Positions 10,278 to 15,826 of a stretch of DNA of 64,000 nucleotides are shown one piece after another. Position 1 is the stretch's first letter; each line of letters opens with the position of its first letter. The notes beneath the pieces are model-generated. The model was not told where the DNA came from and did no database searches. It saw nothing but the letters and a program-made list of their open reading frames with translations. The DNA is from Bdellovibrionota bacterium. GTDB taxonomy: Bacteria; Bdellovibrionota_C; UBA2361; JBIKUX01. The translations under genes were made by a program, and so were the position numbers. The stretch lies in assembly GCA_044347345.1 (NCBI GenBank), contig JBIKUX010000006.1, positions 25,206-89,205 on the forward strand, given 5' to 3'.

Positions 10278-11006
10278 ATGACTAGGAATGCCGCTCGCAG
10301 AGACCCAGTATCTTCACGTGAAGAGCGCGACCTTCTGGTGTCGGAGCACGAAAAATTTGCTCGTGTCATCGCTGGACAGGTTTTAAATTCACTAAGCCTA
10401 TCGAAAGATTTTTTAGATGATGCAGTAAGCTGTGCATATGTTGGCTTAGTAGAGGCAGCCGAGCGATATGACCCCTCATCTGGAGTTCCTTTTCGTGGCT
10501 ATGCATATATAAGAATAAGGGGGGCTGTTATTGATGGATTGCGCGGCGTTACTGGCTCGTCTCGAGCACATCGCCGCCGGTTACGGGTATCACAACATGC
10601 ACTGCTTGATATTGAGGAATCCGGTGCAGTTAGACATGTTAGTAGACAAAATGCTACCCGTGAGGAGAAGCTCGGCGTTTTACTTGATTTGGTTTCCCGA
10701 GTTTCAGTTTCTTTTTCTTACAGTGAGCGTGAGGCTGAAAATAATTTTGGGGTTGAGCTTGTAACTCCTCAGCATGAACTTCCTGAAGAGATAGCGATAC
10801 GAAAACAAACTCAGAAAAATTTAAAAAAAGCTTTCGAAACATTGTCTGATGAAGATCGATTCATACTTGAAGGAATTCATCATCGCGAGTGCACGTTAGA
10901 TGAACTGGGCGCTGAACTGGGGGGAGTGAGTAAATCATGGGTAAGCAGAAAACATACTCGGGCGCTCGACCGACTTCGAGAGGCTTTAGAAGCCTTAGAA
11001 AAATAG
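10278..11006 (+). CDS. RNA polymerase sigma factor, FliA/sigma-28 (group 3 sigma-70) family
   Basis: Region 2 (YVGLVEAAERYDPSSGVPFRGYAYIRIRGAVIDGLR) and region 4 HTH (CTLDELGAELGGVSKSWVSRKHTRALDRLRE) signatures. Length 242 aa. Confidence 0.8.
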   Translation: MTRNAARRDPVSSREERDLLVSEHEKFARVIAGQVLNSLSLSKDFLDDAVSCAYVGLVEAAERYDPSSGVPFRGYAYIRIRGAVIDGLRGVTGSSRAHRRRLRVSQHALLDIEESGAVRHVSRQNATREEKLGVLLDLVSRVSVSFSYSEREAENNFGVELVTPQHELPEEIAIRKQTQKNLKKAFETLSDEDRFILEGIHHRECTLDELGAELGGVSKSWVSRKHTRALDRLREALEALEK

Positions 11007-11008
11007 AT

Positions 11009-11869
11009 ATGCGTAAACATCACATTAAATTAAATAATGATCGTAACTCTCATTTGATCGCTAAAATAAGGATTTTTTTATATTCGCTGATTACTTTCTT
11101 TGGAGTCGCTTGTAAACAAGAGATTCTTCACGATCTAAGTGAACAGGAAGCAAATAGATTATTAGCCAAGCTACATAGTGAGTCACTTTCTCTACACAGT
11201 GAATCACTGTTCCCGATTAAAAAACAACAATCAAATGGACAGTGGAGTATCGCTGTAGAAGATGACCAGGTAGCTAAAGCAGTTACCATTCTCGATAATT
11301 TAAAGTTATTTGCTCCCTCTCCTGATAGTAAAGTAGAGTCCACATCCTCTATTTTTGCCTCTAATGAGGATATTCGTTTAGCTTTTGAACAACGTAAGGG
11401 GAATGATATAGCCCATACGCTAAAAGGACTGGCCGATGTTTTGCAAGCAAAGGTGCATCTAAATATCCCCAATTCTGTAAAGCGCTTTGGGGGAGCAACA
11501 ACCAATGAGGAATCATCAGCAAGTGTTATTTTGATAGTGGATCCAAATTTTAATATCACCGCTGAAGAGATTAAGGGATTAGTTGGCGGTGCGGTAGGAA
11601 TACCTCAAGAGAGAGTGCAGGTTCTTCTGCACGTTACTCAGCGTCCTGAGTTACTGAATGGTAATTTTGAAAAATCCTCGTCTACCAAAGATGTCGTACC
11701 TAAAGATTCATTACTTTTTACAAAAAAAAGTTATCTGACAAACAAATGGCGAATGTTTGCGTTTATAACAATCGGTCTTATTACAGTGCTTGTAGGAGCG
11801 GTATTTTTGATGGTTCTAAAGCGGTCTGGCAATTCTTCCGTACCGTTTCTGTTAGGCGAAGAGTCCTAA
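11009..11869 (+). CDS. SctJ/YscJ/short-FliF-family inner-membrane ring lipoprotein
   Basis: Start moved to the ATG at 11009, 2 nt after the sigma factor stop. Lipobox Cys (FFGVAC) is followed by KQEILHDLSEQEANRLLAKL, the signature start of the YscJ/FliF family. C-terminal TM helix (FAFITIGLITVLVGAVFLMVL). Confidence 0.65.
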   Translation: MRKHHIKLNNDRNSHLIAKIRIFLYSLITFFGVACKQEILHDLSEQEANRLLAKLHSESLSLHSESLFPIKKQQSNGQWSIAVEDDQVAKAVTILDNLKLFAPSPDSKVESTSSIFASNEDIRLAFEQRKGNDIAHTLKGLADVLQAKVHLNIPNSVKRFGGATTNEESSASVILIVDPNFNITAEEIKGLVGGAVGIPQERVQVLLHVTQRPELLNGNFEKSSSTKDVVPKDSLLFTKKSYLTNKWRMFAFITIGLITVLVGAVFLMVLKRSGNSSVPFLLGEES

Positions 11870-11893
11870 AAAATACCTTGAGGAACAAAAACT

Positions 11894-12511
11894 GTGGCGA
11901 CAGAAAAAGCTCTGTGGGGCTCTTCATCAAATCTTGTGGGTTTATTATCAGGCATTTGTCTCTCTCCAGAAGAAACTTTCTCAGTAATAGAAACAGTTTT
12001 AGGATATCGTTATGCAAAATTAGGCGCTGAAGCTCAGAAAACAGTAGAGGTATTAAATAATTTTCCTCTCAGATGGAGAAAAGAGCTATGCCTACTTTCT
12101 TTACAAGACTTAATATCTTCTTTTCATTGGTATTCAATTTATTTTTTTGGCATACTCAAGCCCAATATTTTTCAAGTTACATCGGTTAATGTAAAGAAGA
12201 ATTGGTCAAACAATTATACAGCTACTTTCGTACATCCTATTTATATTCCGTGGTCTATTGATGAAACTATATCCCCTACTACAGTAGTAAGTAGCTCATC
12301 AAATGGCAGCAAGATTGATAGTTTAGAATCTAACGTTGAAGGTAGCTTTTACTTGGGATCAGTCCCATATATTCAAGCTAGTGATAGTAAAAATTTTTAC
12401 TATAAAGTAACAGACCCTTTACATGTCACTTTACGGCTAAATGATGGAAGGTGTTTTTTTGGATCAACAAGTTTGTCACTAGACAAAATAGAAATATCAA
12501 CAGAATTTTAG
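11894..12511 (+). CDS. Hypothetical protein within the secretion-module operon
   Basis: 205-aa ORF, co-directional and tightly spaced between the SctJ-like and FHIPEP genes. No motif recognised. Confidence 0.4.
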   Translation: MATEKALWGSSSNLVGLLSGICLSPEETFSVIETVLGYRYAKLGAEAQKTVEVLNNFPLRWRKELCLLSLQDLISSFHWYSIYFFGILKPNIFQVTSVNVKKNWSNNYTATFVHPIYIPWSIDETISPTTVVSSSSNGSKIDSLESNVEGSFYLGSVPYIQASDSKNFYYKVTDPLHVTLRLNDGRCFFGSTSLSLDKIEISTEF

Positions 12512-14964: not shown

Positions 14965-14973
14965 GAGTCTCCT

Positions 14974-15510
14974 TTGTTAAGAAGAGTAAATTTAATATCG
15001 ATAGGTGCGGTAGCGTTAGTCTTAGCAGGTTGTGCTTCAAATGTGTATCGAGGCAAATATAGGGAAGAATATCCGGTAAAAGCTGCAAATGCTGTGAAAG
15101 ACGGTAATCGGGCTTTAGATGAATTACGATTAGTTGATGCACATAGATTATATTTAGAATCCCTTAAGTGGTCATTGACACCTCAAGCTTATGATGGACT
15201 TGGGCGTGTATTTTTTCGAGGTGGAGATATAAAAAATGCTGAAATTTATCTTCAGAAAGCTATTTCTCTAAATTCTGACTATGCGCCGTCTTATCGTAAT
15301 CTTGCGTTGTTATATGAATACCAAGGAGAGTATCATAAGGCTGAGAGTTTTTATCGAACAGCAGTATTAGTAGATCCAGCTAATGCAGTTTCGCACAGTA
15401 ACTTTGCCGATTTTTTAAAAAAATATGAGCGAGGCAGTTCAAATGAATCGAGTTATCATTCTTGGATGGCACGGCAATTAAGCAAATATCTAATTTCCTC
15501 AGAGGAATAA
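14974..15510 (+). CDS. TPR-repeat lipoprotein
   Basis: Signal peptide with lipobox LAGCAS. TPR-like repeats (AEIYLQKAISLNSDYAPSYRNLALLYEYQGEYHKAESFYRTAVLVDP). Confidence 0.6.
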   Translation: MLRRVNLISIGAVALVLAGCASNVYRGKYREEYPVKAANAVKDGNRALDELRLVDAHRLYLESLKWSLTPQAYDGLGRVFFRGGDIKNAEIYLQKAISLNSDYAPSYRNLALLYEYQGEYHKAESFYRTAVLVDPANAVSHSNFADFLKKYERGSSNESSYHSWMARQLSKYLISSEE

Positions 15511-15511
15511 A

Positions 15512-15826
15512 ATGACAAAAGAGAATGCCAAAAAAAAGACTAATTTAAGGGAACAAAAAAAAACCACGAGACAAGTTGAAACAAGCCTAGCTACAAAAAG
15601 CGCGGTTGAGTCTATAAAGTCAGTATGGGCTGAGGAAATAGCTAATTTGGCCTCAGTGGAGTTCTCTTCTGTTGAGGAAATAATTAAAGCTTTAGCTGAA
15701 CAAGTGAGTAAGAGAACAGGCTTAAATAATCAAACTGATGTTTTTGCTATTATCAAGGAGTTAAAGGATGAAGATGAAACTTTAGACAATCTTCTTAAGT
15801 CATTAATAACAAACTCACCTAAATAA
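15512..15826 (+). CDS. Hypothetical acidic 104-aa protein
   Basis: Start is 1 nt after the TPR gene stop. Lys-rich N-terminus and acidic helical C-terminus. An A10 tract lies in the 5' part of the CDS. Confidence 0.4.
   Translation: MTKENAKKKTNLREQKKTTRQVETSLATKSAVESIKSVWAEEIANLASVEFSSVEEIIKALAEQVSKRTGLNNQTDVFAIIKELKDEDETLDNLLKSLITNSPK

Follow-up and report, generated by a model that had tools for sequence, protein, structure and literature searches.

The stretch examined here, 64,000 nucleotides (nt) of contig JBIKUX010000006.1 from a Bdellovibrionota bacterium (the whole stretch is termed "the window"), carries at positions 10278-15826 a seven-gene operon in which parts of a system for type III secretion (T3SS) are combined with a sigma factor gene. 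A preliminary description of the sequence had listed seven co-directional open reading frames (ORFs), with a sigma factor, an SctJ-type ring protein and a FHIPEP export gate among them; all seven are present, on the + strand, and this parts list is borne out by Pfam and NCBIfam as well as by ~37 related loci. The first gene (10278-11006) encodes a group-3, FliA/WhiG-like sigma factor of 242 residues (aa). It is followed by the gene of an SctJ-type inner-membrane ring lipoprotein of 286 aa with a C-terminal transmembrane anchor (11009-11869; 11009 is the start of the called gene, the longest ORF there opening at 10937), and by x205 (11894-12511), whose 205-aa product appears to be a short, degenerate counterpart of a pair of proteins found in relatives, a small protein ("s68") and an SctQ/FliN-type protein ("Q") with a SpoA domain. 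The region between x205 and the fourth gene harbors a candidate sigma-28-class promoter, P_y (12523-12546, +), recognized by its pattern GCAACT-N15-CGA. The fourth gene, y (12626-12985), encodes a predicted helix-loop-helix protein of 119 aa, or of 94 aa if it begins at ATG 12701 instead of GTG 12626, and is a candidate needle- or rod-type export substrate. Then come the gene of the FHIPEP export gate, a 632-aa SctV/FlhA homologue (13066-14964), that of a 178-aa lipoprotein with TPR repeats, PilW/PilF/Tgl-like in type (14974-15510), and z (15512-15826), encoding a 104-aa protein. The intergenic gaps are, in gene order, 2, 24, 114, 80, 9 and 1 nt, the third being 189 nt if y begins at ATG 12701.

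The rest of the window contains housekeeping genes only, according to the Pfam tables covering it; genes for SctRSTU, an ATPase, a secretin, a rod or hook, flagellin or a motor are not listed in the 64 kb. The earlier statement that secretion genes of these kinds are missing from the window stands, save for the C-ring, for which it has to be qualified, as x205 reads as an SctQ/FliN-type remnant (see below). Neither tRNA genes nor Rfam elements occur in the window, and scans of the region for terminators and sigma-70 promoters returned nothing beyond chance. Neither Pfam nor NCBIfam has a family that matches the 205-, 94/119- or 104-aa ORF.

The same gene order was recovered in ~37 independent loci from uncultured Bdellovibrionota, with FHIPEP identities of 38-57%. 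These loci were collected by exact look-up, by a scan of GTDB species genomes (16 loci, all uncultured) and by a scan of metagenomes (12 usable loci), and were read with ~10 kb of flank on each side; a metagenome scan with an alignment of the window lineage yielded zero confirmed loci. In all loci that are long enough, the order is that of the sigma factor, the SctJ-type lipoprotein, s68 and Q or a fused x, y, FHIPEP, the TPR lipoprotein, and z, with sizes of ~68 aa for s68, ~300 aa for Q, 183-207 aa for x, 92-114 aa for y and ~105 aa for z. Neighbouring genes of the module commonly overlap by 4 nt. The flanking genes are not conserved except inside subclades, and the Pfam tables show no T3SS or flagellar genes among them (one relative is considered below). 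The seven-gene arrangement is far beyond chance and, because the same order recurs in ~37 loci, it is no relic but a conserved operon. With loci L003, L004, L022 and L036, the window falls into the minority "x" variant. Proteins identical to those of the window were found in GCA_041443025.1 as well as in several metagenome assemblies of JGI and Logan. The 120 best-listed relatives of its FHIPEP protein all measure 589-644 aa and share 39-55% identity with it. The named relatives are all metagenome-assembled genomes of uncultured Bdellovibrionota, Oligoflexia, "Deltaproteobacteria" or Dadabacteria. Searches of the accessible literature returned no description of this gene set, of a T3SS in Bdellovibrionota or Oligoflexia, or of a third FHIPEP lineage.

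Some of the loci deviate locally from this layout. A DDE transposase sits between Q and y in L035 (1131-2339), and another lies directly after z in L042 (13326-14714). In L012 (2913-8451), 5.8 kb of unrelated genes separate the ring gene from y, and Q is missing. In one subclade (L006, L007, L009, L010, L014, L018, L019, L043), response-regulator/HisKA and ECF sigma genes recur a few kb downstream of z.

The ring protein passes the YscJ_FliF family model PF01514 (48.7 bits, cutoff 24.4), a check that the preliminary description had put forward for this ORF. It scores 70.5 bits with the SctJ model TIGR02544 (cutoff 161.95, not reached) versus 19.7 bits with the FliF model TIGR00206, and no PDB sequence matches it. 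Its hydrophobic segments span residues 16-35 and 247-274, the latter being the C-terminal transmembrane segment, and its signal peptide ends in a lipobox cysteine that is conserved across the loci, where the ring proteins are lipoproteins of 250-300 aa.

The next slot is occupied by x205 in the window and by x in L003, L004, L022 and L036. Residues 15-70 of x205 are homologous to x of L003 (E 4.8e-7), and the N-terminus of x shares with s68 the motif (F/L)PxxW..E..L. In the loci with separate genes, Q of L007, L015 and L006 matches FliMN_C (SpoA, PF01052) with 31.6, 30.6 and 24.9 bits (cutoff 23.8), and the best NCBIfam model for the relatives' Q is SctQ. The x family aligns with this SctQ-like Q family with an hhalign probability of 97% (E 5.7e-11), and the short x of L022 and L004 reach 22.6 and 17.6 bits with FliMN_C. 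The window protein x205 has no Pfam match and no detectable SpoA domain; because of its gene position and its N-terminal homology, it is read as a degenerate descendant of an SctQ/FliN-type gene, not as a demonstrable member. An alignment by eye of its C-terminus to SpoA was dropped, the profile score being negative. In L039 (8965-9923, corresponding to L026 1620-2635), the SctQ-like gene is found as two ORFs, one of 151 aa and a separate one of 93 aa with SpoA only, behind a 73-aa s68. In injectisomes, a C-terminal fragment of SctQ is made separately, of which this split is reminiscent.

The gate protein is a clear member of the FHIPEP superfamily (PF00771, 466.2 bits, cutoff 29.1). Hydrophobic segments span its residues 1-308 and are followed by a cytoplasmic C-terminal domain, which aligns to the C-domains of SsaV and FlhA in the PDB (E 1e-7 to 1e-6); the loop motifs ARFALDALPGKQMSIDAD and GALDGAMKFIKGDAVAG are kept. 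It reaches 445.3 bits with the SctV/hrcV model TIGR01399 and 421 bits with the FlhA model TIGR01398, under the respective equivalog cutoffs of 692.25 and 772.1. Searches against the PDB rank SsaV (312 bits) and YscV (299 bits) before FlhA structures (275, 256 and 229 bits). Judged by these scores, it is a SctV/FlhA homologue of a separate lineage, slightly nearer to SctV; some databases label members of the family FlhA.

The TPR gene always comes directly behind that of FHIPEP, and the two often overlap by 4 nt. Its product matches TPR_1, TPR_2 and TPR_8 and carries the lipobox LAGC, the signal peptide and the lipobox cysteine being conserved in nearly all loci. A small TPR-repeat lipoprotein recalls the TPR pilotins of type IV and Tad pili (PilF/PilW, Tgl, TadD), and the best NCBIfam model is indeed type_IV_pilW (TIGR02521). 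The module protein differs from these pilotins, however, in scoring far under the cutoffs (50.8 bits versus 154 for type_IV_pilW, 29.4 versus 225 for Tgl), in having no secretin gene nearby, as none was found in any locus inspected, and in being embedded in a T3SS operon. The established T3SS pilotins YscW, MxiM and InvH are not known to be TPR proteins.

The y family has 206 detectable members, all annotated as "hypothetical" and free of Pfam domains. In the window, y may start at GTG 12626, 7 nt downstream of an AAGGA. The family is marked by an N-terminal motif, RFxPEPxS, and by a very conserved C-terminal helix, QMQLVSxxSNIEKSKHExxMAAxRNxR. The AlphaFold2 model consists of a helix (residues 11-33), a loop, and a second helix (residues 48-93), the latter with block-mean pLDDT values of ~79-97 over its last four 10-residue blocks. 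Among 123 members, one matches PF09392 (E 7.6e-4); one member matches TIGR02105 (SctF, E 1.6e-3), and two match the HrpA pilin (E 4e-3). The top PDB match of the y profile is the 43-residue chain 7y6c_F (E 0.59), which is labelled a needle co-chaperone and is read here as a needle-protein helix. Aligned to seven needle proteins, with the sequence verified for PrgI alone among them, the family gives an hhalign E of 1e-3 and a probability of 21%; the alignment to PrgI as a single sequence was uninformative. The window y itself matches no needle family, and Foldseek returned no match. The recurring signals of the family all point to T3SS needle or pilus subunits. They provide a lead, not a proof, and y is therefore termed a candidate needle or rod subunit. 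With x205 a probable descendant of an SctQ/FliN-type gene and y such a candidate, the view that the ring and the gate are the only recognizable secretion parts of the operon is not supported.

The z protein had been described as acidic. Its isoelectric point is 6.3, and it is composed of a basic, disordered N-terminal tail followed by a small acidic domain of four helices. Clustered at 50% identity, the z family comprises 323 clusters, all of them stand-alone. For z, neither sequence nor fold comparison gave a match of any weight, and the scans of 149 members against PDB profiles and Pfam returned noise only (designed helical proteins; FliT and RsdA at E >= 0.004). The earlier guesses for the three uncharacterized ORFs (FliH/SctK/SctL-like, chaperone or anti-sigma components) are confirmed for none of them, and FlgM (PF04316) is absent from the families listed for members of y or z.

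The sigma factor matches Sigma70_r2 (40.5 bits) and Sigma70_r4 (33 bits) of Pfam and passes the general sigma-70 family TIGR02937 (77.7 bits versus a cutoff of 42.9). Its best NCBIfam model is FliA_WhiG (TIGR02479), with 97.5 bits, under the subfamily cutoff of 189.6. Orthologues lead the module in 19 loci, and in the four compared by blastp they are 29-55% identical to that of the window. A side-by-side reading of the upstream regions revealed a motif, AGGAAACTTTT-N12-CGA(T/A). Copies of its core, AGGAAACTTTT-N12-CGA, precede the sigma gene by 30-110 nt in 11 loci, and 14 loci have one upstream of y. The weight matrix derived from those sites gives 28 matches scoring at least 18 in 527,236 positions, and all but one of these lie inside modules; in metagenome loci outside the training set, it again picks sites upstream of sigma and y. 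A simple search of the upstream regions of the sigma genes for TAAA-N15-GCCGATAA gave nothing consistent. The consensus of the E. coli sigma-28 (FliA, class-3) promoters is TAAAGTTT-N11-GCCGATAA, and the spacing from the AAAC to the CGA block of the module motif equals that of this consensus.

The resemblance to flagellar class-3 regulation by FliA thus lies in a sigma factor closest to FliA/WhiG and in a promoter, AAACTTTT-N12-CGA(T/A), with the same AAA(C/G)-to-CGA distance. In contrast to class-3 promoters, that of the module serves ring, gate, ATPase and sigma genes, not late filament or motor genes; no FlgM homologue was identified among the module proteins, and the flagellin genes neighbouring the window operon are free of the motif. 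The operon-encoded sigma factor would read the AGGAAACTTTT-N12-CGA sites, one of which, in relatives, precedes its own gene and another the y-FHIPEP-TPR-z unit; such a layout fits positive autoregulation. The operon is probably made up of two transcription units, sigma-ring-x and y-FHIPEP-TPR-z.

The window shows the x-lineage form of the motif. The pattern GCAACT-N15-CGA has two matches in 64 kb, versus 0.33 expected. One of them is P_y, which occupies the place homologous to that of the relatives' promoter upstream of y and has its -35 and -10 blocks in common with L003, with a different spacer. The tie between sigma factor and operon, which the preliminary description had proposed, is thereby substantiated: relatives carry sigma-28-class promoters before the sigma gene and before the fourth gene, and the window keeps the second of these. 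The other match (59920-59943, -) lies 13 nt upstream of the start codon of an ORF of 331 aa (58912-59907, -), the product of which has a weak IS200/Y1-transposase-like N-terminus with an HxH motif. Overlapping a perfect TATAAT at this short distance from the start codon, this match was not counted as a member of the regulon.

Two further loci bear on the reach of the motif. L032 (1-1100) holds a module without a sigma gene, with a phosphoglycerate-mutase-like gene upstream on the other strand, and a strong site (score 32.4) still precedes its ring gene; as the site is present and the gene is not, the sigma factor should be encoded elsewhere in that genome. In L008, a gene divergent from the module (4436-5263, -) sits behind a motif copy at 5291-5327, outside the training set, with a score of 25.1. 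It encodes a 275-aa protein of no family with a Ser/Thr-rich N-terminus, which is a candidate regulon member or substrate.

Secretion genes beyond the module have been observed in one relative, present in three samples (L026 = L039, L040, L041). There, a third copy of the motif (score 26.1) stands directly upstream of a two-gene unit located ~4 kb from the module in L026/L039. The first gene encodes a 216-aa FliH/SctL homologue (PF02108, 46.5 bits) and the second a 449-aa ATPase of the FliI/YscN family (TIGR01026, 454 bits, over the cutoff of 379.5), which scores nearly alike with SctN (453 bits) and FliI (442 bits). Furthermore, a 570-aa protein with a FliK/SctP-like Flg_hook switch domain is encoded on the opposite strand, its gene ending 3 nt inside the end of z. 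Homologues of FliH, FliI, FliK and flagellin, as well as proteins with NPTH motifs, were searched for in all collected loci and found in the L026/L039 organism only. For this relative at least, an ATPase complex and a protein for length control or switching are therefore part of the system. In known machines, the FliK-type switch domain acts on FlhB/SctU, and because of this SctRSTU may be expected, by analogy, elsewhere in the genome. The module had been regarded as an orphan, which holds locally; at the scale of the genome it does not, as the ATPase genes of this relative belong to the same regulon and flagellin genes lie just outside the window.

Taken together, these features lead us to favour, with moderate confidence, a reading of the region as one operon out of a type III secretion machine that is dispersed and sigma-28-regulated, the other parts of which would be encoded elsewhere. 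This machine probably belongs to a distinct and previously undescribed lineage in uncultured Bdellovibrionota. It resembles injectisomes in its ring and its cytoplasmic SpoA protein, and the flagellum in its regulation. The preliminary description had left the choice between a reduced, flagellum-derived export module and a dispersed piece of a non-flagellar T3SS; the second is favoured by FliH, FliI and FliK of the relative, and the same genes argue against the first.

The following mechanism may be proposed. The FliA-type sigma factor would recognize the sigma-28-class promoter and drive its own operon and the y-FHIPEP-TPR-z unit, as well as, at least in one relative, the ATPase operon (FliH/SctL and FliI/SctN). 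The SctJ ring and a nonamer of FHIPEP would constitute the inner-membrane base, to the cytoplasmic platform of which the SpoA protein, degenerate in the window, would contribute. The y protein would be exported and might polymerize into a structure of the needle or rod kind, with the FliK/SctP-like protein setting its length. The periplasmic TPR lipoprotein may help to anchor or pilot an outer-membrane component.

A comparison with injectisomes (SctJ, SctQ, SctF, SctV, SctL, SctN, SctP) shows both sides of this assignment. Alike are the short SctJ-type ring lipoprotein with its C-terminal anchor, the ~300-aa cytoplasmic protein of the relatives ending in SpoA, the gate scoring slightly better with SctV than with FlhA, the helix-loop-helix predicted for y, which has the small size of needle subunits, and, in one relative, the FliH/SctL homologue, the FliI/SctN ATPase and the T3S4/Flg_hook ruler. 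Unlike in injectisomes, the components of the window module all score under the equivalog cutoffs of NCBIfam, the genes are distributed among several loci, and the inspected regions showed no genes for SctD, SctC, SctRSTU, a tip or a translocon. Furthermore, a FliA-type sigma factor heads the module, of which the TPR lipoprotein, s68 and z are fixed members.

Several observations weigh against the dispersed machine. Genes for SctR, SctS, SctT, SctU, SctD or a secretin were seen neither in the ~84 kb surrounding the window cluster, which take in about 20 kb beyond the window ends, nor in the Pfam-annotated flanks of the relatives (10 kb per side). A single lineage has the ATPase operon near the module. 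No convincing copy of the motif precedes the sigma gene of the window, and the C-terminal 135 residues of x205 get a negative score from the SpoA profile of the relatives. The likeness of y to needle proteins is weak, with single members at E ~1e-3, the hhalign probability quoted above and no Foldseek match. Finally, flagellin genes near the module in the window organism leave room for a flagellar affiliation.

These flagellin genes belong to the main rival explanation, according to which the module would be the flagellar export core of these bacteria, with an atypical flagellum in which a short lipoprotein replaces FliF, the sigma factor being an ordinary FliA and the rest lying elsewhere. 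Two tandem canonical flagellin genes (~287 aa, Flagellin_N and Flagellin_C) and a lytic transglycosylase gene are found in L044 (1679-3491, -), in the same organism, the flagellin pair being 6.5-8.3 kb left of window position 1 and ~17 kb upstream of the sigma gene. The FliA/WhiG-like sigma factor with its sigma-28-class promoter, the FliH, FliI and FliK-type proteins in the regulon or neighbourhood of one relative, and the name FlhA given to family members in some databases speak in the same direction. In contrast, the ring protein is an SctJ-type lipoprotein (70.5 bits on SctJ versus 19.7 on FliF), and the FHIPEP protein is far under the FlhA equivalog cutoff and slightly nearer to SctV. Genes for flhB, flhF, flhG, fliG, fliM, fliE, rod or hook occur in none of the ~37 loci, and no flagellins lie near the module in the other loci. 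The module motif is absent from the upstream regions of the flagellin genes, the second of which is preceded by TGGCA-N7-TTGCT, a sigma-54-like site by eye. On this balance, a flagellar export core appears unlikely, although it is the best of the alternatives.

The module might otherwise be a reduced export or signalling device without SctRSTU, in which the SctJ ring and the FHIPEP nonamer are the whole device, perhaps borrowing FliPQR and FlhB from a flagellum. Such a device would agree with a self-contained gene set kept in ~37 loci, with flanks unrelated to secretion, and with RSTU genes seen nowhere in the inspected regions, where no homologue of fliP, fliQ, fliR or flhB was seen either (10 kb per side of each locus). 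It also has an analogy in the chlamydial orphans FlhA, FliF and FliI, which interact with the injectisome (PMC2830194). The "flagellar" orphans of Chlamydiae are an FlhA encoded beside a sigma-28 gene, a short FliF, and FliI, and they share with the module a FHIPEP paralogue close to a sigma-28-type gene, a short ring protein, an ATPase located elsewhere and the lack of a flagellar cluster there (PMC2830194). They differ in phylum, and the module is one conserved operon of ring, SpoA, gate, TPR and small proteins with its own promoter motif. The chlamydial frame in which the operon had been placed is not upheld: the named relatives belong to the lineages listed above, and the window proteins score poorly with the chlamydial models (FHIPEP 207 bits on the FlhA model PRK05910, cutoff 670; sigma factor 50 bits on PRK05911). 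The FliH-FliI pair and the FliK-type switch of one relative argue against a reduced device, since their known counterparts act on a complete gate including FlhB/SctU, and the absence of RSTU refers to 10 kb per side of each locus. To our knowledge, no FHIPEP protein acts without the FliPQR/SctRST core, which counts further against such a device, and we hold it to be quite improbable.

Least probable of all is a decaying module that is no longer functional in the window lineage specifically, to which x205 without a detectable SpoA domain, the lack of a clear promoter before the sigma gene, and the divergence of y, z and the FHIPEP C-terminal domain (the most divergent of their families in the window, 15-31% identical to most members) could point, whereas the seven reading frames are intact and tightly spaced, the proteins are unchanged across several samples, the conserved FHIPEP loop motifs and the P_y motif are kept, and the sister loci L003 and L004 share the short architecture.

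With the dispersed type III machine retained as the preferred reading, a broader proposal can be formulated, of which we are doubtful at present: the module would mark a third, undescribed type III lineage beside the flagellum and the known injectisomes, positively autoregulated by an operon-encoded sigma-28-type factor, with a needle-like structure built from a new subunit family, y, and a TPR lipoprotein in the style of type IV pili replacing the usual pilotin, usable against prey or host cells and spread in uncultured, probably predatory Bdellovibrionota. Another known system to compare is the "Myxo" system, an early-branching non-flagellar T3SS of Myxococcales, in which SctRSTUV, the ATPase, SctJ and SctI stand together and SctF is absent (Abby and Rocha 2012, PMC3459982). 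Both systems are T3SS-derived, come from predatory "delta-proteobacterial" lineages, are strongly conserved, lack many injectisome parts and show no secretin in the locus (PMC3459982). They differ in their parts, as the module has J, Q and V along with a candidate F-like protein, not RSTU or N; the word "sigma" has zero occurrences in the main text of that article (PMC3459982).

Two features of the surroundings fall outside these subjects. In the window, four co-directional small genes (35831-38237, -) encode proteins of 173, 157, 226 and 235 aa, the first with a prepilin-type N_methyl motif (weak Pfam match) and the other three without family; they may be minor-pilin or pseudopilin genes. Left of the window, ~1.5-5.3 kb from its start (L044 4755-8472), a gene for a replication initiator protein A (PF10134, RPA) lies beside parA and parB, on a contig that also carries the essential genes ProRS, IleRS and LpxK, and such a locus could point to a chromid or to an unusual origin region of a chromosome.

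Type III secretion is known as the flagellum and as the injectisome of host-associated Proteobacteria and Chlamydiae, and the steps between the two have been inferred mainly from odd systems of Myxococcales. The present analysis adds a T3SS gene set that is conserved and widespread in free-living Bdellovibrionota, mixes injectisome-type parts with flagellar-type sigma-28 control and includes three protein families without annotation. If SctRST genes were truly absent from these genomes, a FHIPEP/SctJ device that works without them would have been met for the first time, a much more surprising outcome. The promoter motif offers a direct handle, as scans of carrier genomes with it should bring to light the remaining parts of the machine along with its substrates. 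If the reading as a dispersed machine is true, it would provide a new data point on the origin of the injectisome and, possibly, a weapon of bacterial predators.

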